Assembly (NCBI GenBank): GCA_043757265.1
Contig: JAYUQP010000040.1
Span: 142,094-206,093 of the forward strand
DNA length: 64,000 nucleotides
Reading direction: 5' to 3'
From: Bdellovibrionales bacterium
GTDB lineage: Bacteria; Bdellovibrionota; Bdellovibrionia; Bdellovibrionales; JAGQZY01
Shown here: positions 41,577-56,256 of the stretch, one piece after another
Layout of the letters: each line of letters opens with the position of its first letter
Position numbering within the stretch: position 1 is the first letter of the stretch
Notes under the pieces: model-generated
What the model saw: only the letters and a program-made list of their open reading frames with translations
Databases searched by the model: none
What the model was told of the DNA's origin: nothing
Translations under genes and position numbers: made by a program

Positions 41577-41590
41577 TTTTAACTCCTTAA

Positions 41591-41866
41591 TTATTTTTGA
41601 TCTATTTTGTTTTGAAGCTCTTTGGCTTTTGTTTTCGTTGCATCCATACCATCTTGAGCTGAGTGCTTAACCTGCTTGGCAGCACACTCGAGTTTACCGT
41701 TAATCGTTTCGCATGTTTTATCACCCACGCTCCGCACGGTCTTTTTAACGGAATCTGCAGCTTTATTTTTCACAGTTTCTGCTTTTTCGAGTGTCGTTTC
41801 CTCGGCATGAGCAAACGTCCCAGAGAATCCTATGCAAAGCATCGTCGCTACTGCTAACTTTTTCAT
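41591..41866 (-). CDS. Small secreted protein (hypothetical)
   Basis: 91 aa. Signal peptide MKKLAVATMLCIGFSGTFAHA and a K/E-rich mature part with two Cys. Confidence 0.5.
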   Translation of the reverse strand: MKKLAVATMLCIGFSGTFAHAEETTLEKAETVKNKAADSVKKTVRSVGDKTCETINGKLECAAKQVKHSAQDGMDATKTKAKELQNKIDQK

Positions 41867-41894
41867 TTCGGTTGTCCTTTCTCCCTAATGTTAA

Positions 41895-41929
41895 GAAATC
41901 TTCTACCCGTGTATAAGGTAGAAGATTTC
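41895..41929 (-). terminator. 13-bp-stem hairpin after the DUF1328 gene
   Basis: gaaatcttctacc-cgtgtataa-ggtagaagatttc. There is no clear U tract. Confidence 0.55.
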
Positions 41930-41946
41930 AACTCGATTTCTATTTG

Positions 41947-42129
41947 TTATGGAAGTCTTGTAGAGCTTCTACCGGTAACCAGCGAACCCACGAAACTCAC
42001 TGCTGCGAGGATCAAGAAAACAATCAACAACATTCTACCAATCTCCATTGATAAGCCGCCAACGCCACTTGCACCCAAGAAATAAGCCACTAACGCGATC
42101 ACAAAAAAACCTATTGCTGCACGAACCAT
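41947..42129 (-). CDS. DUF1328 (YtjA-like) small membrane protein
   Basis: The 121-aa track ORF is trimmed to ATG 42129 (RBS aaggaggac). MVRAAIGFFVIALVAYFLGASGVGGLSMEIGRMLLIVFLILAAVSFVGSLVTGR is typical of DUF1328. Confidence 0.75.
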   Translation of the reverse strand: MVRAAIGFFVIALVAYFLGASGVGGLSMEIGRMLLIVFLILAAVSFVGSLVTGRSSTRLP

Positions 42130-42194
42130 ACTGTCCTCCTTATAATTTATACTTCGGGAAACGAAGATATTCGTCTCCATCCCTACGATAGATG

Positions 42195-42210
42195 AGCAAG
42201 CGATGTGCCA
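42195..42210 (-). promoter_or_regulatory. Sigma-54 (-24/-12) promoter of the DUF1328 gene
   Basis: The minus strand reads TGGCACATCGCTTGCT, a perfect TGGCAC-N5-TTGCW. The -12 GC is about 66 nt upstream of ATG 42129, and the promoter is divergent from the NtrC-type activator gene. Confidence 0.7.
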
Positions 42211-42354
42211 GCCAAATGGTGTCTTTAAATGAGATATTAATGATTTAGTTGTAATTTCGTCCAAAAGAAGTACGTTTGCTTGAGTATTATTTGTACCTAT
42301 GATAGCTACCAAAGAACAAGTTAGAACCGAAGCAAAGGTTTATCTGGAGGAATT

Positions 42355-43803
42355 ATGAAATCGTACGCGGGAAAAACAATTGCAGTTGTAGATGATGACG
42401 TTGATGTGCAAGAGCTCGTCGAAGCTTTTTTTCGTCAAAAAGATTTTAAAGTTGTGATCTATGGGGACGCAGAGAGTGCCATCGAAGCGTTGGAATCCAA
42501 TCCCGCCTCCTGGGATGTAGCATTGGTCGATTTACATTTACCGCAAATGAGTGGTTTGGATTTTACTTTAGCTGCAAAAAAAATAGCACAAAATCTTCCG
42601 ATCATTTTGATCACAACTAGTAAGTCTGCTGAGATGGCAGTAGATGCCATCGAAAAAGGTGCCTACGATTTCATCGTAAAACCAATACACTTTCCGCAAT
42701 TGTACATCTCGGTACAACGTGGACTTCACTTTAAAAATCTTCAGGGAGATATTTCCGATCTTCGAACGCATGTGAAAAATCTAAAAAATCCCCATGGATC
42801 CATCATTGGCAAAAGTCCTCGATTTTTGGATGCTCTTAATATATCAAAACGAGTGGCGCCAAGTACCACAAATATTTTTATCTCTGGCGAAAGTGGAACC
42901 GGCAAAGAAGTATTTGCCAAATATATCCACAATGAAAGCACCAGAAAAAAGGGGCCGTTCGTTGCCATCAACTGTTCGGCGATACCAGAGAACCTATTGG
43001 AGTCTGAGCTTTTTGGACATGCAAAGGGAGCGTTCACTGGCGCTCAGGAAAAGAAAATTGGCTTGTTTGAGGAAGCTGAAAATGGAACTCTTTTTCTCGA
43101 CGAGATTGGGGATCTTACTTTGCCATTACAGGCAAAAATTCTGCGCGTACTCCAAGAGAAAAAAATCAAGCGAGTGGGAGAAAACCAGCAAAGGGCAGTC
43201 AACTGCCGCATCATCTCGGCCACTCATAAGGACTTAATCACCGAAATCAAAAATGGTCGGTTTCGCGAGGATCTTTACTTTCGTCTTAAAGTAATTCCCA
43301 TTAGCTTGCCTCCGTTAAGAGAGCGCCGCGAAGACATCTTGCCACTTGCGGAATCCTTTTTGCGAAAGTTTTCCTTGGAGAATGGCTCTGCTGCAAAAAA
43401 ATTCTCAGCTGAGGCGATTGAGTTTCTTTTATCTAACTCGTGGCGCGGAAATGTTCGAGAGCTCGAAAACGCTGTCGAGCGTGCGGTAGTCATCGCAATT
43501 AGTGAGGAGATCTCACAAAAAGATTTTATGTTGGATCAGTTCGAATCCATAGATTTTTCAGAAGACACCCAGGTGGATTTTTCCAACTTATCAAACAGTG
43601 GTTTTTATATACCCTACAGTGCTGATAACATTATTACTCTCGAAGAGGTTATGAATCGTTATATCGAATACACTGTCAAAAAGAACCATGGAGCCCGCGA
43701 TAAAACTGCTCGGGAAATAGGAATCGATCGCAAGACTCTTTACAAACGATTGTCCAAAGCTAACGAGTCAGCCAATGATTCAATGATTGAAACTCAGACT
43801 TGA
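42355..43803 (+). CDS. Sigma-54-dependent response regulator (NtrC family enhancer-binding protein)
   Basis: Receiver domain (VALVDLHLPQMSG), AAA+ domain with GESGTGKE and the sigma-54 contact loop GAFTGA, and a C-terminal Fis-type HTH (AREIGIDRKTLYKRL). Confidence 0.9.
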   Translation: MKSYAGKTIAVVDDDVDVQELVEAFFRQKDFKVVIYGDAESAIEALESNPASWDVALVDLHLPQMSGLDFTLAAKKIAQNLPIILITTSKSAEMAVDAIEKGAYDFIVKPIHFPQLYISVQRGLHFKNLQGDISDLRTHVKNLKNPHGSIIGKSPRFLDALNISKRVAPSTTNIFISGESGTGKEVFAKYIHNESTRKKGPFVAINCSAIPENLLESELFGHAKGAFTGAQEKKIGLFEEAENGTLFLDEIGDLTLPLQAKILRVLQEKKIKRVGENQQRAVNCRIISATHKDLITEIKNGRFREDLYFRLKVIPISLPPLRERREDILPLAESFLRKFSLENGSAAKKFSAEAIEFLLSNSWRGNVRELENAVERAVVIAISEEISQKDFMLDQFESIDFSEDTQVDFSNLSNSGFYIPYSADNIITLEEVMNRYIEYTVKKNHGARDKTAREIGIDRKTLYKRLSKANESANDSMIETQT

Positions 43804-43845
43804 AAACAAAATTCGAGAAATCAATTTTGAAGTTCTAAAGCACGC

Positions 43846-43884
43846 TACAAAAAGAAAGAGGTGACTTGGGGGAAAGTCACCTCT
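43846..43884 (-). terminator. Terminator of the lipoprotein gene
   Basis: 11-bp stem agaggtgactt/aagtcacctct. The plus-strand A-rich tract acaaaaagaa gives a U-rich tail on the minus strand. Confidence 0.55.
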
Positions 43885-43908
43885 CGGGATGGGGCGATGC
43901 GGTGGGAG

Positions 43909-44529
43909 CTAGTTTTTCAGCGCAAAAATCAATGCGTGTGAAGCTTTGCTAGGATAATTCATCTTGTCTGCAGATGTTGGTAACCCCGCGGCGACAAGAG
44001 AGTTTTTAATTTTGCTATCTTGAGTATTTAACCATTCGGAAACCGCCGAGGGCTGCTGCGCCATACTGTGCATTTCCACAGTCACGTTCCGAATAGACTT
44101 CACGAATTTCGAAATAGACTCTGTACGTCTTTTGGCTAAGTCGACCTGTTTAGGCGAGAGTGTGTCTTTCTTTTCCGATGGATAATCTTGATCCGCCCAG
44201 GCCAAAACAATAACTTGATCTAGGTCGTTTTTATCCATCTTGTTAAGCTTCATTAGGTTGCGGATGGAATTTTTAGAATCCTGGGTGAGCTTCGTAGAGT
44301 TTTTATTAAACTTTATCTCAACAAAACTGTGTGCATCGATCTTATCAGCCGTCGTCTCGGGTATAGCGGCTGCTTCTTGTTCCGTAGTGTACGGAACTCT
44401 AGGTTTGCCGGTGACATCTTCATTGGCGGGGCCGCCAGATGATGCACAAGAAACTATCAAACCAGCGCTGACTGCAAAACAAAGTAGGGTTGATATCTTT
44501 TTGATTGGAAAACGTTGTTGTATATTCAT
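43909..44529 (-). CDS. Lipoprotein, possibly with a degenerate OmpA-like C-terminal domain
   Basis: 206 aa, lipobox LIVSCAS. IKFNKNSTKLTQDSKNSIRNL...VIVLAWADQD...LAKRRTESISKFV loosely follows the OmpA_C pattern. Confidence 0.55.
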   Translation of the reverse strand: MNIQQRFPIKKISTLLCFAVSAGLIVSCASSGGPANEDVTGKPRVPYTTEQEAAAIPETTADKIDAHSFVEIKFNKNSTKLTQDSKNSIRNLMKLNKMDKNDLDQVIVLAWADQDYPSEKKDTLSPKQVDLAKRRTESISKFVKSIRNVTVEMHSMAQQPSAVSEWLNTQDSKIKNSLVAAGLPTSADKMNYPSKASHALIFALKN

Positions 44530-44580
44530 TTAGTAAGCTCCTTAGCTGCAAATCTTTGTGGTTATGTGACTTACTATAAA

Positions 44581-44596
44581 GGCAAATAAGATGCCA
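44581..44596 (-). promoter_or_regulatory. Sigma-54 (-24/-12) promoter of the lipoprotein gene
   Basis: The minus strand reads TGGCATCTTATTTGCC (TGGCAY-N5-TTGC). The -12 GC is about 53 nt upstream of ATG 44529. Confidence 0.65.
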
Positions 44597-44837
44597 AAAT
44601 GGCAACCCTTAAATTTGGTCCCAGCTCAGAAATATTAAACTTTTCGTCCTTTCCGAGGACTTTGCGTGGAAAATTCGTACGCAATTTTGGCAGCCCCGCA
44701 ATTAATTACATGTGGAAGTTTGGTTTAACAATTTATCTCCACTGTTTATCAAATCCACTTAATTAGCTCCACAATTTTTTTATCTCCCCGATCAAAATTG
44801 GTTTCAGAATTGCAAACAGTAAACAGAGAGGATTTAC

Positions 44838-47800
44838 ATGGCCGTTATCAAAACAGAACTTCGAAAGGTATTATTTGAAAACATAATAGTACCATTTCTA
44901 TCCACCATTGCGTTTGCTGTGCTTGTTTTTGCTACAGTTTATATGATCGGTAACCGCAACGAGTGGGTTACCCACAGTGATCAAGTTTTAATCACCATCG
45001 AAGATGTGGAAAAGAACTTTCTGCTCGCGCAAGCCAACCGCCGTGAAGTTTTTCTGGGCGTGCCTAATGCAAAAAAAGCTTATTTTGACCAGTACGAACG
45101 ACTGCAGGAAAAAATAAAAAACCTAAGTCAGCTTATCTCGCATAACAAACAACAGCAGATGGCCATCGAAAACGTCTTAACCGAGCTTAAAATATGGCAC
45201 AACGCAATCCTCCCAATATTCAGTCAGGCCGAAAATAACCCGCGCCAGGCAATTCAGTATTTCAAAGAAGCGATGGGTAAATTCAATTCAGATTCATTTC
45301 GTGAGGCTGTAAGTCAATTGCGCAAGGAGGAGCAAAATCTTCGGGCCGCTCGAAGCGAGTCTGCGCAAAACACCACAGGAATAATAGTAGTTATATTGTT
45401 ACCCCTGCTGATAGCCATTACAGGAATTACCGTATTCCGTGGTAGAAAATCCATCTTAAAAATATCGGTTCTTTACGAAGAGCAAAGTCAGCGCCTTATT
45501 CAAAAAATGGAGGAAGTGTCTCGACAAAACTGGTTGCAAAACCATGAGGCAGGAATGGCAAAAAGTGCATCTTCGCTGTCAAGTTTAAATGAATTGGGAG
45601 AAAATGTATTGAAATATTGTGTAGAGCATTTTTTCGCCATCGCTGGATCTTTTTATGTGCGACAGGCCGACGACAGTGATGTGTTCGTCTTACTTGGTTC
45701 TGTGGGAATTTCTCAAAGACAAAGCAAAGATGGAATGTTGAATGTTTTTTCTGCAAACGAAACATTCAATGGCTTGTCTATCAAAACCAAAACCATGCAG
45801 AAGCTGGATGTTTCGCAAGCTACTTCAAAGTGGATGATTCGATCTTCTGTACTGGACGTCACTCCACACTCCATAGTTTCTGTACCCCTTTTGTTTTCGG
45901 ACGAGGTATACGCGGTTATCGAGCTGGCCTTTCCACGGGACATCGACGATGAGGTACTTTATTTTTTGCGCCATAATCTCGAGGGGATTGCAAGCCAAAC
46001 GCGAAACCAGTTGTTACTGCAGCAAACCCAAGAGTTGCTCGCCCAGTTGAGTGAAAAGTCCGTGGAGCTCGAACAGCAGCAGGCAGAACTGAAAACCTCC
46101 AATGAGGAACTGGAAGAGCGCGCTCAATTGTTACGCGAAAGCCAACAGGAAGTAGAAACACGAAATCATGAACTAGAAGAAAGCAATGTTCTCCTGGAGG
46201 AGCAGGCCGAAAACTTGGAACGAAAAAACTGGCAACTTGAAGAGTCTAAAAAAGTCCTCAACGAAAATGCCAAGGAGCTTGAAAGAGCTAATAAGTACAA
46301 GTCGCAATTTTTAGCTAATATGTCCCATGAACTTCGTACACCATTAAACAGCACACTTATTTTGGCTCAGCTGCTCGCCGAAAACCGCGACGCTAACCTC
46401 ACTTCTAAACAAGTAGAGTATGCAAAGCAAATTCACCGCTCAGGGAATGACCTTTTAGCTCTCATCAATGATATCTTGGATCTTTCGAAAGTGGAGTCTG
46501 GACACCTGGATTTTGAAGTCAGCACCTTCAACACGACCGAACTGTTAGAGTCGCTACAGGCTAACTTTTCAATTATTGCTGAAAATAAAGGTTTACGTTT
46601 TAACATTTTAGATCGAGCTCACACAACGATCAGTCATGATCGTCTTCGCCTAATGCAGGTGCTTAACAATTTAACGTCCAATGCTATTAAATTTACCGAA
46701 AAAGGCAGCATCACGGTAGAGCTAACAAATCAAGATTCAAGGCACATCACTATTTTGGTGCATGATACAGGGATTGGGATTGAAAAAGAAAATTTGAATC
46801 TTATTTTCGATCCTTTCCGTCAAGCGGATGCAAGTATCACTCGCAAATATGGGGGTACAGGGCTCGGACTTTCGATCACCAAGAAAATTGTCGAATCCAT
46901 GGGCGGGTCCATCAAGGTAAGTTCCACTGTTGACCAGGGAACCCAGTTCGAAGTGTGCCTACCGAAGGATTTAGGCGAGATGCGGTTGCCTGTGAAAGCG
47001 CCGCTCACTTCCACCGTCAGTGCCGCCGACGTCGATCGCGTCGGCGATCGTGACGCCAATTTCTATGACGATCAAGATAACGATCAAACACTTCCCAAAG
47101 TTCTGATCGTCGAGGACGACAAAAATTTTGCGAAGGTTTTGTTTGAGAGCGTGAGTACTGAGGGCTTTAGCTGTTTGGTTGCGCATTCAGCTGAAGAGGC
47201 TTTAAAATTTCTGGCGGGTCAGCCACTTCTTGCCATTTTACTTGATATTCAACTTCCTGATCATAGTGGTTTATTTGTTTTAGAAAATGTACGTCGAAAC
47301 GACGCAACCAAAAAAGTTCCTGTTTTTATCATCTCTGCCTTTGATAGCAGTCTGCTAGGACAAAATGCCGACGATCTCGTGAAGGTTTCAAAGAAGCCTC
47401 TAACCAAAGGCGATTTGGATAAGATCATTAGTGAAATTCAAGATTTTTCTCATCACCTTAAAGGCAAAATTCTTATTGTCGAAGATGACCCTCATCAGGC
47501 GGGCTATCTCAAAGATCATCTATCAGCGTTTCGCACAGAGGTGGACGTTGTTGATTCGGGCAAGAAAGCCTATGAAATTCTAGTTAGCGCCCACAATGTC
47601 GATTGTGTAATTCTGGATTACAAATTGCCCGATTGTATTGGGCTCGATCTTTTACAACGGGTTCATGCAACATTGGGCGCGCCACCCATTCCTCTGGTGA
47701 TTGTGCATACGGCGATGAATCTTTCTCGTGAAGACGAAATGGAACTCAAAAAATATTGTAAATCAATTGTGATTAAAGGACAAAAATCCCTGGCTCGCAT

Positions 47801-48293
47801 AACAAGTGACATTAGCACATTCTTGAAATCTGCCACAGTCAAGCGCGAGGGCACAGCGGGCGATAAAATAGCCGACACGTCGACGGACAATGAATATAAA
47901 AAATCTCTACAAGACATTCAGGTACTCGTGGTCGACGATGATGTCCGCAATGTGTACTCGATGACTGCATTCTTAGAAGAGGCTGGTGGGGTAGTTACGA
48001 TGGCTTCGAACGGTCAGGACGCCATAGAGGTGCTAAAAACAAAAACCGAATTTGATGTGGTTTTGATGGATATTATGATGCCGATGATGGATGGCTACCA
48101 GGCCATTCGAATTATACGCGACAATTTAAACTTTAAAATGTTACCTATCATCGCACTTACCGCGAAAGCAATGCAGGAGGATCGAAAAAAATGTATTGAG
48201 GCAGGTGCAAACGATTACTTAACAAAACCTGTAGATCTCGAAAAACTTATAATGATGATCAAAATGTGGTCGAATCGGGGCGTATGGAACTAG
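44838..48293 (+). CDS. Hybrid sensor histidine kinase: CHASE3 - TM - GAF-like - coiled coil - HisKA/HATPase - three receiver domains
   Basis: 1151 aa. CHASE3-like periplasmic region (WVTHSDQVLITIEDVEKNF), H-box FLANMSHELRTPLNS, G-box GGTGLGLSI, and three REC domains (LLDIQLPDHSG, ILDYKLPDCIG, LMDIMMPMMDG). Confidence 0.9.
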   Translation: MAVIKTELRKVLFENIIVPFLSTIAFAVLVFATVYMIGNRNEWVTHSDQVLITIEDVEKNFLLAQANRREVFLGVPNAKKAYFDQYERLQEKIKNLSQLISHNKQQQMAIENVLTELKIWHNAILPIFSQAENNPRQAIQYFKEAMGKFNSDSFREAVSQLRKEEQNLRAARSESAQNTTGIIVVILLPLLIAITGITVFRGRKSILKISVLYEEQSQRLIQKMEEVSRQNWLQNHEAGMAKSASSLSSLNELGENVLKYCVEHFFAIAGSFYVRQADDSDVFVLLGSVGISQRQSKDGMLNVFSANETFNGLSIKTKTMQKLDVSQATSKWMIRSSVLDVTPHSIVSVPLLFSDEVYAVIELAFPRDIDDEVLYFLRHNLEGIASQTRNQLLLQQTQELLAQLSEKSVELEQQQAELKTSNEELEERAQLLRESQQEVETRNHELEESNVLLEEQAENLERKNWQLEESKKVLNENAKELERANKYKSQFLANMSHELRTPLNSTLILAQLLAENRDANLTSKQVEYAKQIHRSGNDLLALINDILDLSKVESGHLDFEVSTFNTTELLESLQANFSIIAENKGLRFNILDRAHTTISHDRLRLMQVLNNLTSNAIKFTEKGSITVELTNQDSRHITILVHDTGIGIEKENLNLIFDPFRQADASITRKYGGTGLGLSITKKIVESMGGSIKVSSTVDQGTQFEVCLPKDLGEMRLPVKAPLTSTVSAADVDRVGDRDANFYDDQDNDQTLPKVLIVEDDKNFAKVLFESVSTEGFSCLVAHSAEEALKFLAGQPLLAILLDIQLPDHSGLFVLENVRRNDATKKVPVFIISAFDSSLLGQNADDLVKVSKKPLTKGDLDKIISEIQDFSHHLKGKILIVEDDPHQAGYLKDHLSAFRTEVDVVDSGKKAYEILVSAHNVDCVILDYKLPDCIGLDLLQRVHATLGAPPIPLVIVHTAMNLSREDEMELKKYCKSIVIKGQKSLARITSDISTFLKSATVKREGTAGDKIADTSTDNEYKKSLQDIQVLVVDDDVRNVYSMTAFLEEAGGVVTMASNGQDAIEVLKTKTEFDVVLMDIMMPMMDGYQAIRIIRDNLNFKMLPIIALTAKAMQEDRKKCIEAGANDYLTKPVDLEKLIMMIKMWSNRGVWN

Positions 48294-48457
48294 TCAGCAC
48301 CGCATTTAAACCATTTATAAATCGTCTTTTTGAAGTGCACGGGTACGATTTCAGAAATTACAACATGGCCTCACTTTATTTAGAATCTGAGCAAAAGCTA
48401 AATCTATTTCAGCAAGTTATAAAACCAAATTTTTTTGCTAAAGTGAGCTCACGATGA
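48266..48457 (+). pseudogene. Probable remnant of a CheR-type methyltransferase N-terminus
   Basis: FKPFINRLFEVHGYDFRNYNMASL follows the CheR_N pattern (F..l...G.DF..Y....L), but similarity ends where the conserved RR.R.R helix is expected. Only ~60 codons remain, squeezed between two kinase genes. Confidence 0.4.
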
Positions 48458-50067
48458 GTCCTTTTAAAATACTCATCGTGGATGACAAAGAAAGTAATAT
48501 TCTCTCCCTACATGCTTCATTAGAGAGTCCCTTGCTATCCTTTGCAACAGCGACCAGCGGGCAAGAGGCTTTGCAGATACTAGCTAAAACGAACGACGTT
48601 GAACTCGCACTCTTGGACGTGCAAATGCCAGAGATGAATGGATTTGAGCTCGCGAGCTTCATGCGCGGGGTGGAAAAGACTAAACACATTCCAATTATGT
48701 TTTTAACCGCAACCATGCACTCAACGGAATATGAGTTTAAAGGATACGATGTCGGTGCAACTGATATTCTTTTTAAACCAGTCAATGTCCAAATTCTAAA
48801 ATCAAAAATTGATGTTTTCATGCGCTTGAGAGACAAGAGGCTTGCAATACACGAAAAGGTGCTCTTGCTCGAAAAGGTCACACAAGATTTGGCCGAGGCT
48901 CGAGAGATCGCCGAGGAGGCAGATCAAGCCAAATCCGCGTTCCTTGCAAACATGAGTCACGAAATCCGGACGCCGATGTCCTCTATACTGGGCTTCGCAG
49001 ACCTCATCAAACAAAACTTGCAAGACCCTGAACAAACTAAAAGTTACATCAATATTATTATTCGAAACGGAACGCACTTACTCGACATTATCAACGACGT
49101 TTTAGATCTTTCAAAAGTTGAAGCCGGTCAGTTGAATGTAGACATTGCCAATGTGAACTTAAAGAAAATTGTGGAAGAAGTGATTCTTTTCCTTAGCGGC
49201 TTTGCAAGGTCGAACAATGTCACCATGACCATTGGGCCATACTTCGACGACAGCTTGTTTGTAAAGGCAGATGCCACTCGATTGAGACAAGTTCTTATCA
49301 ACCTCATAGGCAATTCAATCAAATTTTCAAAAGATGGAAAAGTTTTTCTTGATTGCGAAGTTTTTCAAGATGAGCTTGAGATCACCATCAAAGATACGGG
49401 CATTGGTATACCTCTATGTAAACAAAAAAATCTATTTGTGCCATTTAACCAACTCACTGAATACAATTCCGAGATCACCATGCGGGGCACTGGACTTGGT
49501 CTATGTCTTTCCAAAAAGCTAATGCAGAATATGAAAGGCGATATTTATTTGGATCGTTCGGCACCAGATGACGGGACCACGTTTAAATTGAAAATCGCAT
49601 TGGGTGATGCGAACGAAGCCGAATTCTCTCCGATTTTTCTAAAAAATAAATTTATCGGAAAAAATTGCTTAAAAGACATCAAGATATTTGTCGTCGACGA
49701 TTCTAAAGACAATCAGATGCTACTACAGATCATGCTGGAAAAATATGGAGCAAGCGTAGATTTTGCTGATAACGGCCAGCAAGCTATTGAACGTTTGCAA
49801 GCGGCAGACTTCGACATCATTCTTATGGATTACAAAATGCCTGTGATGGATGGTTTCGAAGCGACCAAAAAAATTAGAAAAATGGGAAACAAACTCCCCA
49901 TCATTTTACTTACGGCCAACGCAATGAAAGGGGAACGAGAAAAATCTCTTCGAGCCGGAGCTAATGCGTATATTTCAAAGCCGATCGACTGGTCCGCTCT
50001 AATCAGCTCCATCTTGCAACTCATTGAATGCTCAAATGATCATGTAAAAGATGAAAGGACGATTTAA
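48454..50067 (+). CDS. Hybrid kinase: receiver - HisKA/HATPase - receiver
   Basis: 537 aa. REC (ALLDVQMPEMNG), H-box FLANMSHEIRTPMSS, GTGLGLCLS, and a C-terminal REC (ILMDYKMPVMDG...KP). Confidence 0.9.
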   Translation: MSPFKILIVDDKESNILSLHASLESPLLSFATATSGQEALQILAKTNDVELALLDVQMPEMNGFELASFMRGVEKTKHIPIMFLTATMHSTEYEFKGYDVGATDILFKPVNVQILKSKIDVFMRLRDKRLAIHEKVLLLEKVTQDLAEAREIAEEADQAKSAFLANMSHEIRTPMSSILGFADLIKQNLQDPEQTKSYINIIIRNGTHLLDIINDVLDLSKVEAGQLNVDIANVNLKKIVEEVILFLSGFARSNNVTMTIGPYFDDSLFVKADATRLRQVLINLIGNSIKFSKDGKVFLDCEVFQDELEITIKDTGIGIPLCKQKNLFVPFNQLTEYNSEITMRGTGLGLCLSKKLMQNMKGDIYLDRSAPDDGTTFKLKIALGDANEAEFSPIFLKNKFIGKNCLKDIKIFVVDDSKDNQMLLQIMLEKYGASVDFADNGQQAIERLQAADFDIILMDYKMPVMDGFEATKKIRKMGNKLPIILLTANAMKGEREKSLRAGANAYISKPIDWSALISSILQLIECSNDHVKDERTI

Positions 50068-50354
50068 TTTTTGAGAGAGATTTTTTTCTCGGCCGATTTT
50101 AGCCAAGTTTCAAATTGACCTACCAAATCACTTCCCTGCGACGCAAGATCTTCACACTTCAGGTCTTCCATTTGGGAAGCAAGAGGTACAAGCTCATCGA
50201 AACCAAAGCTCGTCGCATTTCCAACCAGCTGATGTCCAATCCGGTTGAACTCTTTTACGCTGTTTTCAGCTAAGCTCGCCTGGAGAGTTTCAACATCTTT
50301 GGATCTGCGCTGCAAATACGTCAGTATCACTTCTATTGGTAATTCCGTGTCCAT
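50064..50354 (-). CDS. Histidine phosphotransfer (Hpt) domain protein
   Basis: The 143-aa track ORF is trimmed to ATG 50354 (96 aa). Hpt motif EFNRIGHQLVGNATSFGFDEL. Its 3' end overlaps the convergent kinase stop by 4 nt. Confidence 0.7.
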   Translation of the reverse strand: MDTELPIEVILTYLQRRSKDVETLQASLAENSVKEFNRIGHQLVGNATSFGFDELVPLASQMEDLKCEDLASQGSDLVGQFETWLKSAEKKISLKN

Positions 50355-50503
50355 AAAAAGACGGTAGCATAACGCCTTTTTGAAATCCACATTTTTTGCC
50401 ACCAGCATATTTTTTGGGCAATAAAATATTCCCATAATTTTGGCGACTCGTACATTAATTGAACGTGTTGTGGGCTCAAAATAAATATACGTCATCTGAT
50501 ACT

Positions 50504-50519
50504 TGGCCCACGTCTTGCG
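50504..50519 (+). promoter_or_regulatory. Sigma-54 (-24/-12) promoter candidate of the receiver gene
   Basis: TGGCCCACGTCTTGCG (TGGC-N7-TTGC). The -12 GC is about 60 nt upstream of ATG 50579. Confidence 0.6.
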
Positions 50520-50578
50520 ATAATGGTTGGTAGCAACGCCATTCAGATTTTAAAGGCCGCCTAAATAGGGAGAACAAG

Positions 50579-51028
50579 ATGAGCACTTACAAAAAAAAGG
50601 TATTAATCATTGAAGACGACAAAGATATGGCCGCGGTTATCAAATATCGTATTGAATCCTACGGAGGATCGCACTGCGACCTTGTGAGCGACCCCTACGA
50701 GGCTCTCAATCTGCTAAGTGATTCCGCTTACGACATGGTTCTAGTTGATCAAAAATTGCCGGGTATGCTCGGTTCGAGCGTGCTTAGCCAAGTAGATAAA
50801 TTTATCGACTTAGATCCGACGCTTGCAGAACTCAATCGCTTTAGTCACAAGATACCTGTTGTTTTAATGTCTGGAGCACCGATCAAGCTAAGCAGTCATT
50901 ACAGTTTGAAACATTTTAATATTGAAAAAATCCTCGATAAAAAAACGGAACTGGCTTCTTTTTTAAGAACCGCCTTTGGTTCTAAATCTATCGAGTCCAA
51001 ACCGATGGATATTGGCGCTATAGCTTAA
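50579..51028 (+). CDS. Stand-alone response-regulator receiver protein (atypical, with insert)
   Basis: 149 aa. VLIIEDDKDM and MVLVDQKLPGMLG. It shares the D.FI..D insert and PVVLMS block with 40402..40851. Confidence 0.75.
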   Translation: MSTYKKKVLIIEDDKDMAAVIKYRIESYGGSHCDLVSDPYEALNLLSDSAYDMVLVDQKLPGMLGSSVLSQVDKFIDLDPTLAELNRFSHKIPVVLMSGAPIKLSSHYSLKHFNIEKILDKKTELASFLRTAFGSKSIESKPMDIGAIA

Positions 51029-51060
51029 AGCACTATTAAAATTTAACAAGGAGGAGAAAC

Positions 51061-51201
51061 ATGTACCAGAACCTAACAAAGCTATCGATTGTCAAAAAGC
51101 TAATAAATAACCAAGAAGGAAAAGTTGGGTATTTAGTAGCGTGGATGCTTGGTGTACCGGCATCACTCTTATTCATAATATTTTTAGTACGCGGTGGGTA
51201 A
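51061..51201 (+). CDS. 46-aa small membrane protein (below the ORF-track size cutoff)
   Basis: ATG sits 6 nt after aaggaggag. MYQNLTKLSIVKKLINNQEGKVGYLVAWMLGVPASLLFIIFLVRGG has one TM helix. Confidence 0.4.
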   Translation: MYQNLTKLSIVKKLINNQEGKVGYLVAWMLGVPASLLFIIFLVRGG

Positions 51202-51268
51202 GAAAGTTTTAAGAGTAAAAAAAGATTTTATTAATTTTAATAAGCAGTGAAACATAAAGGAGAAAAAG

Positions 51269-51553
51269 ATGAATAAAGATATGGTAAAAGGCAAATGGCT
51301 TGAAATTAAAGGTGAAGTCCAAAAAGCTTGGGGAAAGCTAACCAATGATGAGCTCGATAAAACCGAAGGCGACATGAAAGCTGTAGCTGGACTCATTCAG
51401 CAAAAGTACGGCGAAACAAAAGACAGTTTTCAAGGACAACTTGACGGAATTTACGAGCGTTTTATTTCTAAAAAAGATGGCGTCGTTGATAGCGTAAAAG
51501 ACAACTTGCGAACCGACAGTTCAAACACGTCGAATGTATCTGGGGTTTATTAG
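51269..51553 (+). CDS. CsbD/YjbJ-family general stress protein
   Basis: MNKDMVKGKWLEIKGEVQKAWGKLTNDELDKTEGDMKAVAGLIQQKYGETKD is colinear with E. coli YjbJ. RBS aaaggag. Confidence 0.85.
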   Translation: MNKDMVKGKWLEIKGEVQKAWGKLTNDELDKTEGDMKAVAGLIQQKYGETKDSFQGQLDGIYERFISKKDGVVDSVKDNLRTDSSNTSNVSGVY

Positions 51554-51639
51554 AACTTGAACTCATTTTCGTCACGATATTTGAACTTAATTTAATGTAA
51601 TTTGGATAGGCAAAAAACAACGCATAAAATGGAGCAATT

Positions 51640-51981
51640 ATGAATACAACAAACACGAATACAACAAATAGTGCACTCAACGGAGCAAGTAAAACAGCTA
51701 AGGATTTTTCAAATGCGGCAAGTGGAATCGAAAGTAAAGTCGAAAGCAAAATGGGTTACGGCTCTGAATTTAATAAGCTGAGCGAACAAGCTGGAAAGCA
51801 TGTTGGAACTGTTGCTTCGCAAGTAAAAGCAACTGCTGACAAATACATGGCTAACGGTCGCGAGTATGTTGAGCGTGGACAAGAGTATGTGAAAACGAAT
51901 CCCGAAACAAGCATTGTTGCTGCTTTAGGCATTGGCGCTGTGATCGGCGCACTCATTACCTACGCCCTTCGCAGGAAATAA
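51640..51981 (+). CDS. DUF883 (ElaB/YqjD-like) membrane-anchored stress protein
   Basis: 113 aa. Helical N-terminal part and the C-terminal anchor NPETSIVAALGIGAVIGALITYALRRK, as in ElaB/YqjD. Confidence 0.7.
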   Translation: MNTTNTNTTNSALNGASKTAKDFSNAASGIESKVESKMGYGSEFNKLSEQAGKHVGTVASQVKATADKYMANGREYVERGQEYVKTNPETSIVAALGIGAVIGALITYALRRK

Positions 51982-52003
51982 TTTTTATACCTCTTTTAAC
52001 TAT

Positions 52004-52040
52004 GGCCTTCTTTCATTATAGAAAGAGGGCTTTGTATTTT
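52004..52040 (+). terminator. Rho-independent terminator
   Basis: ggccttctttc-attata-gaaagagggc followed by tttgtatttt. Confidence 0.6.
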
Positions 52041-52057
52041 AGAGAAAAGGAGTCTTT

Positions 52058-52267
52058 ATGAAACGGATTTTTTATAAACTGAAAGAATTCTGGCTGAAGA
52101 GTCTATTTTACATTCGTTGTCGAATTCATAATTTGTTGTTTAATAGATCGTTGAAGAGTAAAGATTGCTTAAATTTAGCTCGAAGAAGCGATGTCTCGGG
52201 AAATTATGATCTTGATGGAGCTTCTTTCGACGGAAATCAAATATATATAAACGGAAAATTAATTTAA
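52058..52267 (+). CDS. Hypothetical 69-aa protein
   Basis: Good RBS (aaaaggag, 7 nt spacing) but no recognisable family. Confidence 0.35.
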   Translation: MKRIFYKLKEFWLKSLFYIRCRIHNLLFNRSLKSKDCLNLARRSDVSGNYDLDGASFDGNQIYINGKLI

Positions 52268-52295
52268 TTTTTATAAATACATAGAAAGGATTAAA

Positions 52296-52886
52296 ATGAA
52301 AACTCATTTTAAACAACTAATTGGCCTGTTTTTGTCATGCTCATTGCTCTCTTTTGTAGCAGTGGCCGACGATACGGACTATTCTGCGGGATCAGTGATA
52401 TCCGAACCACGAGCTGTGGGTGCCGACAGCGAATTGAAACCACACTTCGGACTTCTGCTCGGGCTTTCTAACCCTGAAGGTTCTTATTCATCAGGCGCAG
52501 AGTATGGCCTCAGCGTAGGGTATCAGTTCTACATTCCGTACTCGCTGGTTTTCGAACTTTCGACGACTGGTAACGATGCGGCTAGTGATTCCGCTGATCT
52601 ACGACGGACTAAGGCAATAGCACAATTATCCTACAACTTCGCGGGTAACATCCCAGTTATCTCTCACTCGTATGTAGGGTTAGGTATTGGTCCAATGCTT
52701 GAGTCGTTCCGCGATGACGATGAAGTGGTATTGGGCGTAATGCCGGTAATTGGTTTTGATATTCCGATTGGAAGTGAGAAGTCTGGTAAACATTTTTCAC
52801 TAGGCGGGAACGCCCGTTATTTGGTCAGTTCAAGTGGACTTCCCAATGTGTTTTCAACCAATGTAGCTGCAAAATACTGGTTTTAA
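52296..52886 (+). CDS. Outer-membrane beta-barrel protein (porin-family/OMP_b-brl)
   Basis: 196 aa. Signal peptide LIGLFLSCSLLSFVAVA, alternating strands and a terminal AAKYWF. Confidence 0.7.
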   Translation: MKTHFKQLIGLFLSCSLLSFVAVADDTDYSAGSVISEPRAVGADSELKPHFGLLLGLSNPEGSYSSGAEYGLSVGYQFYIPYSLVFELSTTGNDAASDSADLRRTKAIAQLSYNFAGNIPVISHSYVGLGIGPMLESFRDDDEVVLGVMPVIGFDIPIGSEKSGKHFSLGGNARYLVSSSGLPNVFSTNVAAKYWF

Positions 52887-52899
52887 CGGTTTTAGGTTA

Positions 52900-53880
52900 A
52901 TGGCGTATCCGTTGACGACGATCTATGCAAAACGAACACGGGAAGAACTGCCATGGCAGTTCTTCTTTTTTTTAATGTTCATCTTCCTCCTCCTCCTGCC
53001 ATTGCAAAGTTTTGCAATTGGTACTATCGGTACAATTGGATCGGAGCAAACCCCGCCACAGACCGTGCTAAAAGACGAGCTCATGCCTGGAAGTGAATCC
53101 TTAAATAAACCGCTCAAAAATCGCTATTCATTTTTTCTGCACAAACGAAATTATTTATTACCCGTGAGCTATAACTGGCATCCCAACAACGATCTTTACA
53201 GTGCAGTGGCACCGTACAGAGATACCGACTCGCCATTTTACGGAAAAACCGAGGCTGAATTCCAAATCAGTTTTTTCGCGCCGCTCGTTGAGGACGTTTT
53301 TTTTGAAAATTTCGATTTACTGTTAGGCTACACCCATCATGCCTGGTGGCAATTGTACAACGCATCGTGGTCTAAGCCATTCCGCGAGACGAACTACGCA
53401 CCCGAACTCTTTTTTAGAAAATCGATCGAGATCCCAAATGGGAGTGAAAGAAAGTTTATGTTCGTTGATTTAGGCTACAACCATGAATCTAACGGGCAGT
53501 TCGAATCTTTGTCGCGAAGTTGGAACCGCATATTTTTGCGCAGCCATTACAGTGCGGAAAAATTCTTAGTTGTGTTGTCCGCATGGCACCGTCTTCCCGA
53601 ACCCAATGAAGAGGATGAAAACCCTGGAATTCAGGAATATTACGGCTACGGCGACCTCGCAGTATTTTACGCCTTAGGTAAGCACACCTTTGATTTTAAA
53701 ATGCCTTTTTCAAAAAGTCCTGGAGTGGAATTTGGCTATTCTTTTCCTATTAAAGATTTCTACCGATTTTATGTTAACTATAAGTCGGGCTACGGGCATT
53801 CGTTGATCGAGTACAACAGATCCATCGAACGCGTTGGAATTGGCATTACGCTCGAAGGAAGCATGGATCGTCGTCATTAA
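52900..53880 (+). CDS. pldA: Outer-membrane phospholipase A1
   Basis: LGYNHESNGQFESLSRSWNRIF matches the OMPLA catalytic His-Ser block (E. coli NHDSNG...SRSWNR). Confidence 0.85.
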   Translation: MAYPLTTIYAKRTREELPWQFFFFLMFIFLLLLPLQSFAIGTIGTIGSEQTPPQTVLKDELMPGSESLNKPLKNRYSFFLHKRNYLLPVSYNWHPNNDLYSAVAPYRDTDSPFYGKTEAEFQISFFAPLVEDVFFENFDLLLGYTHHAWWQLYNASWSKPFRETNYAPELFFRKSIEIPNGSERKFMFVDLGYNHESNGQFESLSRSWNRIFLRSHYSAEKFLVVLSAWHRLPEPNEEDENPGIQEYYGYGDLAVFYALGKHTFDFKMPFSKSPGVEFGYSFPIKDFYRFYVNYKSGYGHSLIEYNRSIERVGIGITLEGSMDRRH

Positions 53881-53981
53881 AAAAAATATTAATGTGTGGA
53901 AAAAGCGGACGACGCCTCGAGTGCTCGAGTAAAATATATCCTTCTCGTCAAATTGTATTCCATCAAAAGTGAGTTCCAGAA

Positions 53982-53997
53982 CGGCACACGAATTGCT
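53982..53997 (+). promoter_or_regulatory. Near-consensus sigma-54 promoter candidate
   Basis: CGGCACACGAATTGCT has GG and GC at correct spacing; only the first T is replaced. It lies 114 nt upstream of ATG 54111. Confidence 0.4.
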
Positions 53998-54110
53998 CTT
54001 ATTAATGTTGATTCTGGAATGAAGTATTGCGATAGAAGCCAAGGCTTCATGGCCTTAGCCTAAAGAGATGAATTTCCAGAATGAAAAAATTTTTAACCTA
54101 AGGAGTCATT

Positions 54111-54338
54111 ATGAAAAAGCAGAATCCGTACAATCAACAAGATGATACCAGACTAGCTGGCCCGGGATCAAAACAAGATCCGAAAACTAAAGAGTTTGAA
54201 AAGTCCAATAACCGAAACGAAGACATCGGCTATGACGAAGAAGAAGATGGCATTGAAAGCGATCCTGCTCGTTCCAATGAAGATGCGCCTCGGAGCGATG
54301 ATTCTAAGGTGCAAAAAGATAGACATTCAAAAATGTAG
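54111..54338 (+). CDS. Small highly charged (hydrophilin-like) protein
   Basis: 75 aa, D/E/K/N-rich with no hydrophobic core. RBS taaggag. Confidence 0.5.
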   Translation: MKKQNPYNQQDDTRLAGPGSKQDPKTKEFEKSNNRNEDIGYDEEEDGIESDPARSNEDAPRSDDSKVQKDRHSKM

Positions 54339-54343
54339 TAGCC

Positions 54344-54392
54344 GGAAAAGGATGGCCAGCGCTGCCTTTTATGCTTGGCCATTCCTTTTTTC
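54344..54392 (+). terminator. Rho-independent terminator
   Basis: aaaaggatggcca ... tggccattcctttttt, a long stem with A/U-tract pairing. Confidence 0.6.
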
Positions 54393-54439
54393 ATAGAATA
54401 TTTAACAGAATTAACAGGATAACAAAGGAAGGAGATCAG

Positions 54440-54829
54440 ATGAGACTTTTTAGAAATATTGGCGTTGTAGTAGCTTTGGTTTACGGAATGTTTTTTGCGA
54501 ATAGCTCGTTTGCAAATACCGCTCTCGTGGTGAAAGATTCCACAGCATTAAATGTTAAAGATGCAGACGGTGGAACAAAAACTCCGTTAGATCAGATGAA
54601 CGGAAGTGAAAAAGATATCGAAACAACCCGACAAATTCGACGAGCTCTAATGGACGATGAATCCTTATCAACAAACGCAAGGAATGTGAAAATCATCACT
54701 CTTAAAAATAAAGTAACAATTCGCGGGGCTGTCAACTCACGTGAAGAATTACAAAGAGTGGTTAAAGTTGCTAAGTCAACAGCCGCCCAAGATTCGCAGA
54801 TCGTTCATGATTTAAACATTGTAAAATAA
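54440..54829 (+). CDS. BON-domain periplasmic protein
   Basis: Trimmed to ATG 54440 (RBS ggaaggag). Signal peptide, then TRQIRRALMDDESLSTNARNVKIITLKNKVTIRGAVNSREELQRV, the BON pattern. Confidence 0.8.
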   Translation: MRLFRNIGVVVALVYGMFFANSSFANTALVVKDSTALNVKDADGGTKTPLDQMNGSEKDIETTRQIRRALMDDESLSTNARNVKIITLKNKVTIRGAVNSREELQRVVKVAKSTAAQDSQIVHDLNIVK

Positions 54830-54889
54830 GCGGTAAATTAATTGGTAGATTTGCCGGAAAATAAGTGAATTTTAACAAAAGGAGTTGAT

Positions 54890-55531
54890 ATGAACACAGA
54901 TAAAAAAGAATTGAAAAATTCGGTGTTTGGAATCTTTCAAACCCAAATCGCTCTTGAATATTGCATTACGAAGCTGAAAGAACGAGGTTTTTTTGGTACA
55001 GACATTTCGGTGTTAATGCCGTCGAAGTCTGAGACGCGAACTTTTGCTCACGAAAATTCTACGAAATCGCCTGAGTTTGCAACTGGTGGTGCAGCCGGCG
55101 GAGCAGTGCTCGGCGGAGTATTAGGCTGGCTGGCTGGAATTGGCACGTTGGCGATCCCAGGCGTTGGGCCATTTATTGCTGCAGGGCCAATCGTGGCTGC
55201 TCTTTCTGGAGCAGGTATTGGTGGTGCCATCGGCGGAATTTCTGGGGCCTTAGTTGGACTTGGTGTACCTGAATACGAAGCAAAGCGATACGAAACACTC
55301 GTCAATGCTGGTGGCATGTTACTGTCTGTCCACGTGAGCACATCACCGTTGCAAGAAGGCGCACTTGAAATACTTAAAGAGTGCGGTGCCTCCGACATTT
55401 GCGTTAAAAAAGAAGCCAAAGGTTCGGATGTTTACAAAGACGATACTCCCAAACGCGGCGATGATATCGGCGTGACCAGGGCTCAATCCACATCACCAGA
55501 ACTGCACTACAATACTTCAAGACCTATTTAG
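54890..55531 (+). CDS. General stress protein (YflT-like N-domain, glycine-zipper membrane segment)
   Basis: VFGIFQTQIALEYCITKLKERGFFGTDISVL (YflT-like), GGAAGGAVLGGVLGWLAGIGTLAIPGVGPFIAAGPIVAALSGAGIGGAIGGISGALVGLG, then GVPEYEAKRYETLVNAGGMLLSVHV. Confidence 0.65.
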   Translation: MNTDKKELKNSVFGIFQTQIALEYCITKLKERGFFGTDISVLMPSKSETRTFAHENSTKSPEFATGGAAGGAVLGGVLGWLAGIGTLAIPGVGPFIAAGPIVAALSGAGIGGAIGGISGALVGLGVPEYEAKRYETLVNAGGMLLSVHVSTSPLQEGALEILKECGASDICVKKEAKGSDVYKDDTPKRGDDIGVTRAQSTSPELHYNTSRPI

Positions 55532-55566
55532 TGAATGCGATAGTTTTTGTTGGAAAGTATGTGCAA

Positions 55567-55596
55567 GTCGAAGGCTTTACGCCTTCGACTTTTTTT
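55567..55596 (+). terminator. Rho-independent terminator
   Basis: gtcgaaggc-tttac-gccttcgac followed by T7. Confidence 0.85.
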
Positions 55597-55703
55597 GCGT
55601 TCAAAAAATGGACTTGTAGCATGGGGGAGTGATTTAATTGGACGAGTTTGACTCCTGTGCTGGCTTAATTTAGACCTGAAAATAATTGAACAATTGGAAG
55701 GTG

Positions 55704-55719
55704 TGGCATTCCACTTGCT
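55704..55719 (+). promoter_or_regulatory. Sigma-54 (-24/-12) promoter of the Pqi/MCE-like operon
   Basis: TGGCATTCCACTTGCT (TGGCAY-N5-TTGCW). The -12 GC is about 62 nt upstream of ATG 55780. Confidence 0.7.
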
Positions 55720-55779: not shown

Positions 55780-56256
55780 ATGATTTTAAAGCAAGTTTTG
55801 ACGTTTCTCGCAACGTACTTACTGCGTGAACGATTTTCTCCAGCCCGTACAAACTGGATTGGTGATTCGACAAAGGCCATCGGGTACACCGCTCTAACTA
55901 CGATGGTCCTAGTAAAGTTAAATGCTCTTTTAAAGAAGAGTGTCATCGTGATTCCGCTGACAGTCCTTGGAACAGTGTTAGTTATAGTTAGCTACATGGA
56001 CCTTATGAATATTGTTGATAACGGTGTTGAAAAGTTAGAGCCTTCCTTTTTCATAAATTTGGTCATCGCAGTAGTTTGTTTTGCAGTATCTGTCTATGTT
56101 TTGCACTACGTAAAAGATAAACATCAGGAAACATCTGAGACAGAACTGACGGACAGTGACACCGATCCTATACAGAGCGCGAAATTCCATGTTCAGGAAA
56201 ACTTGGAAGCTTTTAAGCGCGGCTTTTCACAAGGTTACGAAAAGTCCAATGATTAA
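55780..56256 (+). CDS. Membrane protein of unknown function (first gene of the Pqi-like operon)
   Basis: 158 aa with 3-4 hydrophobic helices and an acidic C-terminal tail. Its stop overlaps the next start (ATGATTAA). Confidence 0.5.
   Translation: MILKQVLTFLATYLLRERFSPARTNWIGDSTKAIGYTALTTMVLVKLNALLKKSVIVIPLTVLGTVLVIVSYMDLMNIVDNGVEKLEPSFFINLVIAVVCFAVSVYVLHYVKDKHQETSETELTDSDTDPIQSAKFHVQENLEAFKRGFSQGYEKSND

Follow-up and report, generated by a model that had tools for sequence, protein, structure and literature searches.

Do the sigma-54-type (−24/−12) promoter elements that surround a gene for an NtrC-type activator in the genome of an uncultured Bdellovibrionales bacterium make up one regulon, and which functions would such a regulon serve? 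The question is raised by a stretch of 64,000 nucleotides (assembly GCA_043757265.1, contig JAYUQP010000040.1, positions 142,094 to 206,093 of the forward strand), hereafter called the window, which designates the whole stretch of DNA analysed. Five promoter elements, designated P1 to P5, precede genes for stress-type and envelope-type proteins in the neighbourhood of the activator gene. We consider it likely that this is a conserved cluster in which one NtrC-family activator drives at least four sigma-54 promoters (P1, P2, P3 and P5), and probably P4 as well. Its gene content suggests a regulon for general or envelope stress that is connected to sigma-54, such stress genes being usually connected to RpoS, sigma-B or EcfG.

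Promoter elements, the upstream dyad and the activator

The two strands of the window contain seven exact matches to TGGC-N7-TTGC. Dinucleotide shuffles of the window gave a mean of 3.2 matches, and three of 100 shuffles reached seven, so that the chance expectation of about two assumed in the original prediction was slightly too low. It is the placement of the matches and not their count that carries weight, because the raw count of an 8-base pattern is only mildly enriched. Five of the seven lie within the non-coding 9.9% of the window as defined by the gene map (binomial estimate, P about 2e-4), and the remaining two (15787 and 25402) are located in coding DNA. Four of the intergenic matches, at 42196-42210 (−), 44582-44596 (−), 50504-50518 (+) and 55704-55718 (+), are found near the activator gene and correspond to P1, P2, P3 and P5. 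As predicted, they are co-oriented with the gene that follows, and 65, 51, 59 and 60 nt, respectively, separate the end of the 16-nt element from the start codon. The near match described ahead of the hydrophilin-like gene was also present (P4), with a gap of 113 nt, and the fifth exact match, at 22022-22036 (−), lies ahead of the cph operon.

A weight-matrix scan for sigma-54 promoters, proposed for the whole genome as a check together with the original prediction, was run on the window (128 kb, counting both strands). Six of the nine top hits were P1 to P5 and the cph site, all of them intergenic, in the same orientation as the next gene and close upstream of it, as against the 9.9% of the DNA that is non-coding. 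Hits of at least 12.5 bits numbered nine, compared with 4.5 in Markov simulations. P1 to P5 scored between 12.8 and 17.3 bits, their GG and GC doublets being 10 bp apart. Pfam analysis bore out the assignment of the genes behind the four exact elements as those for a DUF1328 protein, a lipoprotein, a stand-alone receiver and Pqi/MCE proteins.

Alignment of the DNA upstream of P1 revealed a strongly conserved block that forms a dyad, GTNC-N7-GNAC, with an A/T-rich centre and often extended to CGTWC-N7-GKACG. A pattern search of the window returned 15 such sites, with 8.5 expected, and exact dyads are centred between 47 and 98 bp upstream of TGGC at P1, P2, P3 and P5 (Table 1). When a matrix was derived from the dyad sites, the dyads of P3, P1 and P5 reached 18-21 bits, against at most 10.3 bits elsewhere in the window. 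A dyad of this kind is typical of the site of an enhancer-binding protein, and we infer from the sequence that the activator is its candidate reader.

The activator matched Sigma54_activat (1.4e-71), Response_reg (1.4e-22), HTH_8 (3.9e-6) and AAA_lid_14 in Pfam, and contains GAFTGA at amino acid 225, a Walker A motif (GESGTGKE) at amino acid 178 and, within VALVD, Asp59 as the presumed acceptor residue. Its closest matches in the PDB were NtrC1 and NtrC4 of Aquifex, LuxO and ZraR. The protein scored below every NCBIfam equivalog cut-off (NtrC, AtoC, ZraR, GlrR, LuxO, NtrX and the PEP-CTERM regulator), with 412 against a cut-off of 714 for AtoC, 384 against 559 for NtrC, 356 against 760 for ZraR and 327 against 763 for GlrR, and is an NtrC-family member outside all named orthologue groups. 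A second Sigma54_activat protein was found neither among the open reading frames of the window scanned with Pfam nor among the gene calls of the matching contig, in agreement with the claim that the window encodes a single enhancer-binding protein with GAFTGA. The Pfam scans of the window reading frames detected no rpoN within the 64 kb.

Table 1. Coordinates of the promoter elements, upstream sites, genes and terminator-like structures discussed in the text (HTH, helix-turn-helix; aa, amino acids)
Feature	Position	Strand	Remarks
NtrC-family enhancer-binding response regulator, proposed regulon activator	42355-43803	+	REC, AAA+ and Fis-type HTH (Pfam)
P1 sigma-54 element TGGCACATCGCTTGCT	42195-42210	−	17.3 bits, top matrix hit of the window
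P2 sigma-54 element TGGCATCTTATTTGCC	44581-44596	−	13.3 bits
P3 sigma-54 element TGGCCCACGTCTTGCG	50504-50519	+	12.8 bits, weakest of P1 to P5
P4 sigma-54 element CGGCACACGAATTGCT	53982-53997	+	14.1 bits; near match
P5 sigma-54 element TGGCATTCCACTTGCT	55704-55719	+	15.3 bits
cph (P6) sigma-54 element TGGCCTGCGAGTTGCA	22021-22036	−	15.5 bits
Weak −24/−12-like element TGGTTTCAGAATTGCA	44799-44814	+	10.2 bits; 24 nt before the start codon of the CHASE3 kinase gene
P1 proximal dyad GTCCAAAAGAAGTAC	42259-42273		56 bp upstream of TGGC; conserved alignment block
Site A, second conserved P1 block	42282-42296		good GTNC half-site, degenerate partner; spaced 23 bp from the proximal dyad
P2 dyad GTCCTTTCCGAGGAC	44646-44660		57 bp upstream of TGGC; tandem with the next
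P2 dyad GTGGAAAATTCGTAC	44666-44680		20 bp from the preceding dyad
P3 dyad GTACATTAATTGAAC	50450-50464		47 bp upstream of TGGC; best dyad-matrix match; conserved in L079, L081 and L082
Tentative P4 upstream site GTGGAAAAAGCGGAC	53896-53910		one dyad mismatch; 79 bp upstream of the element
P5 dyad GTTCAAAAAATGGAC	55599-55613		98 bp upstream of TGGC
P5 weaker dyad GTGATTTAATTGGAC	55629-55643		30 bp from the preceding dyad
P1 operon	40977-42129	−	the three genes listed next (Pfam)
DUF1328/YtjA-like membrane protein	41947-42129	−	Pfam
91-aa secreted protein	41591-41866	−	
Outer-membrane beta-barrel protein	40977-41576	−	
Terminator-like hairpin, end of P1 operon	40896-40917	−	
OmpA-like lipoprotein gene under P2	43909-44529	−	weak Pfam OmpA match
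Terminator-like hairpin after the OmpA-like lipoprotein gene	43856-43885		
P3 operon	50579-51981	+	stand-alone receiver, 46-aa membrane peptide, CsbD, DUF883/ElaB-like (Pfam, NCBIfam)
Terminator-like hairpin, end of P3 operon	52004-52031		
69-aa protein, outer-membrane beta-barrel, phospholipase A1 (PldA)	52058-53880	+	Pfam PLA1 4e-76; syntenic with the cluster
P4 operon	54111-55531	+	75-aa hydrophilin-like, BON/OsmY-like, 213-aa glycine-zipper membrane protein (Pfam BON, weak NCBIfam OsmY)
Strong terminator-like hairpin, end of P4 operon	55565-55591		
P5 operon	55780-60057	+	membrane protein, PqiB-like, PqiA-like, outer-membrane-like protein, 398-aa protein
CHASE3-GAF-HisKA-HATPase-3xREC hybrid kinase, proposed stress sensor	44838-48293	+	Pfam
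CheR-type methyltransferase gene remnant	48284-48457	+	tblastn with the CheR of L082 as query
REC-HisKA-HATPase-REC hybrid kinase	48454-50067	+	Pfam; conserved in L079, L081 and L082
Hpt phosphotransfer protein, motif GHQLVGNATSFG	50064-50390	−	Pfam Hpt; short start, per matching contig L001
Stand-alone receiver protein	40402-40869	−	Pfam Response_reg; position kept in L079 and L082

Conservation of the cluster and alternative readings

Orthologues of the activator, with 59-91% identity, were compared in ten fetched loci; as L079 and L080 are near-duplicates, nine of these are distinct. Their source labels read Bdellovibrionota, Bdellovibrionaceae or Bdellovibrionales, and the assemblies GCA_043771095.1, GCA_964356945.1, GCA_016713885.1, GCA_027459485.1 and GCA_965610775.1 carry orthologous loci. 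In eight of the nine distinct loci the activator gene and a DUF1328 gene are divergent, the place of the latter being taken in L083 by a 100-amino-acid gene of unknown function, and a −24/−12 hit precedes the divergently oriented gene in the window and in eight of the nine. When the P1 intergenic region of the window was aligned with those of six relatives, the mean column identity was 49%, GG was invariant, TTGC was nearly so (in L084 it is shifted by one column owing to a gap), and the spacer differed in almost every sequence. Conserved −24/−12 cores with drifting spacers are the pattern expected of functional promoters. Counterparts of P2, P3, P4 (CGGCACAAGGTTTGCT) and P5 (TGGCACTGGGCTTGCT) are all carried by L079, whereas L082 keeps P2, and L081 and L085 keep P3; the CsbD genes of L083, L084, L166 and L168 also have −24/−12 hits. 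Genes for CsbD, DUF883, Hpt and stand-alone receiver proteins recur near the activator in relatives, and the kinases, Hpt proteins and receivers are syntenic across them.

The dyad recurs in these loci as well. Only four dyads occur in the 21 kb of L079, all of them upstream of the four orthologous promoters, the one at P5 (GTACAAATTTTGTAC) being 87 bp away. An exact dyad is found at P1 in L082, L081, L085 and L083 and a version with one mismatch in L168; L082 has it at P2 and P3 too, and both P2 dyads are kept in L079 and L082. At most copies of P1 and at P2 the proximal dyad is 55-58 bp from TGGC (66 bp at P1 of L079). The promoter of the CsbD gene in L083 likewise has, 55-58 bp away, a near-dyad of 12.3 bits, above the 99th percentile of the background, and that in L084 has there a weak match of 4.0 bits, within the background.

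A second block at P1, site A, is conserved in nine aligned loci and shows the exact dyad pattern in L085. The block may be a further site for the activator or may belong to the promoter of the activator gene itself; reading it as a sigma-70 promoter of that gene (TTGCTT-16-TATGAT) could not be separated from the reading as a second activator site.

The cluster had been called an island, a term that holds in the sense of a conserved chromosomal gene cluster and should not be read as denoting a mobile element. The G+C content is 40-42% over positions 40000-54000 and 44-49% in most of the remaining window, and since the stress cluster is syntenic in relatives, the low G+C looks compositional rather than the outcome of recent transfer. 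A metagenome scan with the activator as query returned mostly short contigs or paralogues of 34-45% identity. Among the few matches of 54-62% identity with upstream DNA, L088, L090 and L093 showed a divergent −24/−12 element and L088 alone an exact dyad, and these were not counted as evidence. In L081, the place that the lipoprotein gene holds in relatives is a 340-bp gap without a called gene, and an orphan sigma-54 element, CGGCATGTCTCTTGCC (11602-11617, −), lies in it; the element could belong to a small RNA or a small unannotated gene, or be a relic.

Several points weigh against one activator serving all these promoters, a reading which is computational and built on sequence inference throughout. 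The sigma-54 weight matrix is an approximate rendering of the published consensus and serves for ranking only. In 400 first-order Markov simulations the mean number of promoters with a dyad 40-110 bp upstream was 0.045 and the maximum one, as against four observed, a comparison that is partly circular because the dyad had been found in the same upstream regions. The real support for the dyad comes from the orthologous loci, the closest of which are not independent owing to shared ancestry. Among the relatives of higher G+C content, the dyad is poor in L166 (−0.5 bits) and L167, although L168 keeps it (10.5 bits at 57 bp), and in L167 the matrix scan detected no −24/−12 hit upstream of DUF1328. 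P3 is a weak sigma-54 match, with its −12 motif degraded to TTGT in L082, and is overlapped by a sigma-70-like match, CTGATA-17-GATAAT with TG (50496-50524, +), the flanks of which are conserved among closer relatives; this promoter may be dual. At P4, the tentative upstream site GTGGAAAAAGCGGAC is kept in L079 at equal distance, with a matrix score within the background. On the sensory side, the kinase differs between relatives (CHASE3 in L081 and L082, MASE3 in L166, PAS or PAS-GAF in L085 and L167). The closest relative, L079, whose activator is 91% identical, has neither the CHASE3 kinase nor cheR (12160-14014, L079/L080), and yet keeps the REC-HK-REC kinase (HK, histidine kinase), Hpt and all promoters and dyads. 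The sensor kinase seems to be interchangeable, and the order of the phosphorelay and the nature of its signal, as set out below, are guesses from domain content.

How far these points favour another explanation can be judged from the same data. It is highly improbable that the TGGC-N7-TTGC matches are products of chance or relics and that the operons use sigma-70-type promoters: a raw count only about twice the expectation (7 against 3.2, with 3 of 100 shuffles reaching 7) and the sigma-70-like match overlapping P3 would agree with this, but the matches are concentrated in non-coding DNA in the correct orientation, distant orthologous loci keep their GG/GC cores while the spacers vary, a shared dyad accompanies them, and a complete sigma-54 activator is encoded within the cluster. 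The promoters could also be real with the activator controlling only the divergent DUF1328 operon, the rest being served by other enhancer-binding proteins and the dyad being bound by another regulator, such as a repressor or a nucleoid protein. Deltaproteobacteria-like genomes usually hold many enhancer-binding proteins, the different palindrome at the cph promoter implies that more than one activator is at work, and the association of the activator with DUF1328 is the sole universally conserved link. We nevertheless regard such a division of labour as quite improbable, given that the same dyad occurs at the same 55-58 bp at P1, beside the activator gene, and at P2, with a near-dyad at the CsbD gene of the distant L083, that the natural reader of a 15-bp dyad is a dimeric activator with a Fis-type helix-turn-helix, and that the loci share no other DNA-binding regulator.

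A further possibility concerns the role rather than the mechanism, as the regulon might serve envelope remodelling in the predatory cycle (attack phase, prey entry or exit). The lineage is Bdellovibrionota, the outer-membrane proteins, phospholipase A1 and MCE/Pqi lipid transport could serve membrane remodelling, and a general control of the cell exterior by sigma-54 has been argued for (PMC3162934). However, the most conserved targets, CsbD, DUF1328 and DUF883, are hallmarks of stationary-phase and osmotic stress elsewhere (PMC5437024), and the Pqi and PldA genes are confined to the closest relatives, and we hold a role in the predatory cycle to be unlikely. The reading of several correctly placed sigma-54 promoters around one NtrC-type activator as a stress and envelope regulon, put forward in the original prediction, is supported by their conservation and by the shared dyad.

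Signalling genes, putative target operons and a proposed mechanism

Pfam recovered all the neighbours assigned to the activator gene, namely the CHASE3 hybrid kinase, the other hybrid kinase and the Hpt protein. In the CHASE3 kinase, whose orthologues are 64% (L082) and 44% (L081) identical, the GAF match is weak (E 0.001) but clear in a Pseudomonas homologue, and no HAMP domain was detected with Pfam. The 160-bp gap between the two kinase genes is occupied by the remnant of a CheR-type gene, of which L081 and L082 have intact copies. With the L082 CheR as query, tblastn matches just residues 1-31 and 244-276 there, an N-terminal and a C-terminal coding piece being all that is left, and the remnant is an internal deletion scar. 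As RsbM, the equivalent of CheR in Bacillus cereus, is a negative regulator, the strain of the window may run the pathway differently.

Two paralogous stand-alone receivers of about 150 amino acids (40402-40869, −, and 50579-51028, +) lie one at each end of the signalling cluster. Both have conserved counterparts in L079 and L082 and depart from the Pfam receiver model in their C-terminal halves; the first is possibly part of the signalling circuit. A gene for a REC-PP2C phosphatase was not found in the cluster with Pfam, and the candidate for the output is the enhancer-binding protein. A HAMP-SpoIIE (PP2C) phosphatase without a receiver domain is encoded 10 kb away (31229-32974, −). Further genes of the window encode a LexA repressor (26737-27363, −) and a MotA/MotB stator pair (35490-37122, −).

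The weak element TGGTTTCAGAATTGCA was considered as a sixth promoter, for the CHASE3 kinase gene, and not adopted; it is kept in L079 and not in L082 or L081, and would leave almost no leader. The element shares the P2 dyads within a divergent intergenic region, and could give positive feedback or be a product of chance.

Among the products of the target operons are hallmark general-stress proteins as identified by Pfam and NCBIfam, namely CsbD, DUF1328/YtjA, DUF883/ElaB, BON/OsmY and hydrophilin. The gene order of the P1 operon is the same in L079, L082 and L167 and partially so in L084 and L166. In the P5 operon, the PqiB-like protein matches MlaD in three stretches and the PqiA-like protein matches PqiA at 4e-42. 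The matrix scan gave no convincing −24/−12 hit upstream of the genes at 52058-53880, and these might be reached by read-through from P3. A hairpin proximal to the 5' end of the DUF1328 leader (42130-42183, −) is present in the window, L079, L082 and L081 with differing sequences; in view of the modest z-scores (−0.3 to −2.2), the P1 leader hairpins are not claimed as a feature. The P4 leader (54000-54110) folds into a long hairpin (z −2.1).

We propose the following course of events. An envelope or ionic-strength type of signal would be sensed by the CHASE3/GAF hybrid kinase together with the REC-HK-REC kinase, and phosphate would pass from the receiver domains of the kinases via Hpt to Asp59 of the activator. 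The phosphorylated activator would then assemble on the GTNC-(A/T-rich N7)-GNAC dyads, present singly or in pairs about 20 bp apart and located 47-98 bp upstream of TGGC, and its AAA+ ring, acting through the GAFTGA loop and ATP, would open the closed complex of the sigma-54 holoenzyme on the −24/−12 element. The predicted products are, on the stress side, the DUF1328/YtjA-like, CsbD, ElaB-like, BON/OsmY-like, hydrophilin and glycine-zipper proteins and, on the envelope side, the OmpA-like lipoprotein, outer-membrane barrels, PqiA/PqiB-MCE lipid transport and perhaps PldA. The stand-alone receivers may act as phosphate sinks, and the one expressed from P3 could in this way exert negative feedback.

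The additional exact match at the cph operon was located as predicted, with the C of its −12 GC 44 nt before the better ATG (21978), and precedes genes for an iron-containing redox enzyme, a DDAH-like amidinotransferase, a cyanophycin synthetase, an amidohydrolase and a cyanophycinase-type peptidase. No GTNC-N7-GNAC dyad is present upstream; instead, a different palindrome, ATCGTTT-N-AAACGAT, is found at 22077-22091, 48 bp upstream. The cph promoter was therefore excluded from the regulon of this activator and probably answers to another one.

Significance and comparison with known systems

The general stress response of Bdellovibrio-like bacteria is apparently undescribed, and the present cluster offers a concrete candidate comprising one activator, an enhancer motif, five promoters and a set of targets. 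A limited literature search yielded no description of a sigma-54 stress regulon in Bdellovibrio, nor of a link between CsbD or DUF1328 and sigma-54. The list of sigma factors of Bdellovibrio bacteriovorus HD100 includes the RpoN-like bd0843, with RpoS absent (PMC3464611), and B. marinus encodes rpoN (PMC3526173). We put forward, as a tentative idea that falls somewhat short of an even chance, that a Bdellovibrionota lineage built its general (osmotic or envelope) stress response on sigma-54, by means of an unnamed NtrC-family activator, interchangeable kinases, an Hpt relay and the GTNC-N7-GNAC enhancer. If true, a sigma-54 regulon would stand in for the missing RpoS-type response in the phylum and add one more independent way of wiring the general stress response of bacteria, beside those through RpoS, sigma-B and EcfG. 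As the mechanism is standard sigma-54 biology, the advance would lie in the content of the regulon and its evolutionary wiring and not in a new principle: the gene set is one normally under other stress sigma factors, and the mechanism itself is textbook. Used as a pair, the dyad and the −24/−12 motif allow the full regulon to be predicted for any genome within the group.

The NtrB/NtrC-glnAp2, NtrC1/NtrC4, ZraR, AtoC, LuxO and GlrR systems share with the present one the order REC-AAA+(GAFTGA)-Fis-type helix-turn-helix, the −24/−12 promoters, paired upstream dyads and a presumed activation by phosphorylation. They differ in their targets, which are related to nitrogen, zinc or acetoacetate there and to stress and the envelope here, and in the multi-step relay with Hpt input of the window. 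The known sites, TGCACC-N5-GGTGCA for NtrC and TGTC-N10-GACA for GlrR, also differ from GTNC-N7-GNAC. PspF with the psp genes, and GlrR/QseF with rpoE P2, likewise employ sigma-54 and an enhancer-binding protein for envelope stress; PspF, however, lacks a receiver domain and is under the control of PspA, and the cluster of the window is without targets of the psp, rpoE or glmY type.

On the sensory side, CHASE3 kinases are known to feed general stress responses, as does RsbK of Bacillus cereus with its methyltransferase RsbM (PMC4574943), RsfS of Mycobacterium smegmatis and KipF of Sphingomonas melonis, and CfcA of Pseudomonas putida acts in a salt response (PMC10950880). The likeness to RsbK-RsbM-RsbY/sigma-B consists in a CHASE3 and GAF hybrid kinase beside a gene set of general-stress type that includes CsbD, and extends in L081 and L082 to a CheR-type gene placed immediately behind that of the kinase, an arrangement also found for rsbK and rsbM. 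In contrast to the RsbK-type systems, the output here would be an enhancer-binding protein with sigma-54, and neither PP2C partner switching nor a diguanylate cyclase; in the window, moreover, cheR is reduced to a remnant, no HAMP is detected, and the kinase has three receiver domains. When reference genomes were searched with the CHASE3 kinase, no close relative emerged; the best match, in the Pseudomonas oryzihabitans group, is 35% identical over the full length of the kinase and part of a cassette of CHASE3-GAF-HK-3xREC, CheR, CheB and REC-HK. The sensory cassette is thus widespread, and what is distinctive is its apparent coupling, via Hpt and an enhancer-binding protein, to sigma-54, as one more instance of a CHASE3 kinase that seems to be placed above a stress regulon, here with another type of output.

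The target set finds its closest parallel in families under other sigma factors. CsbD takes its name from being controlled by sigma-B, and ElaB/YqjD/YgaM, OsmY and PqiABC are RpoS-dependent in E. coli. In Salmonella, YjbJ (CsbD-like) and YtjA (DUF1328) are controlled by RpoS (PMC5437024). The RpoS regulon of E. coli and Salmonella (yjbJ/csbD, ytjA, elaB/yqjD/ygaM, osmY and pqiABC) thus draws on the same families, CsbD, DUF1328, DUF883, BON and PqiA/PqiB, as the cluster of the window. In the enterobacteria, however, these genes are scattered on the chromosome and depend on a factor of the sigma-70 family, whereas here they are clustered and preceded by putative sigma-54 promoters with a candidate enhancer.

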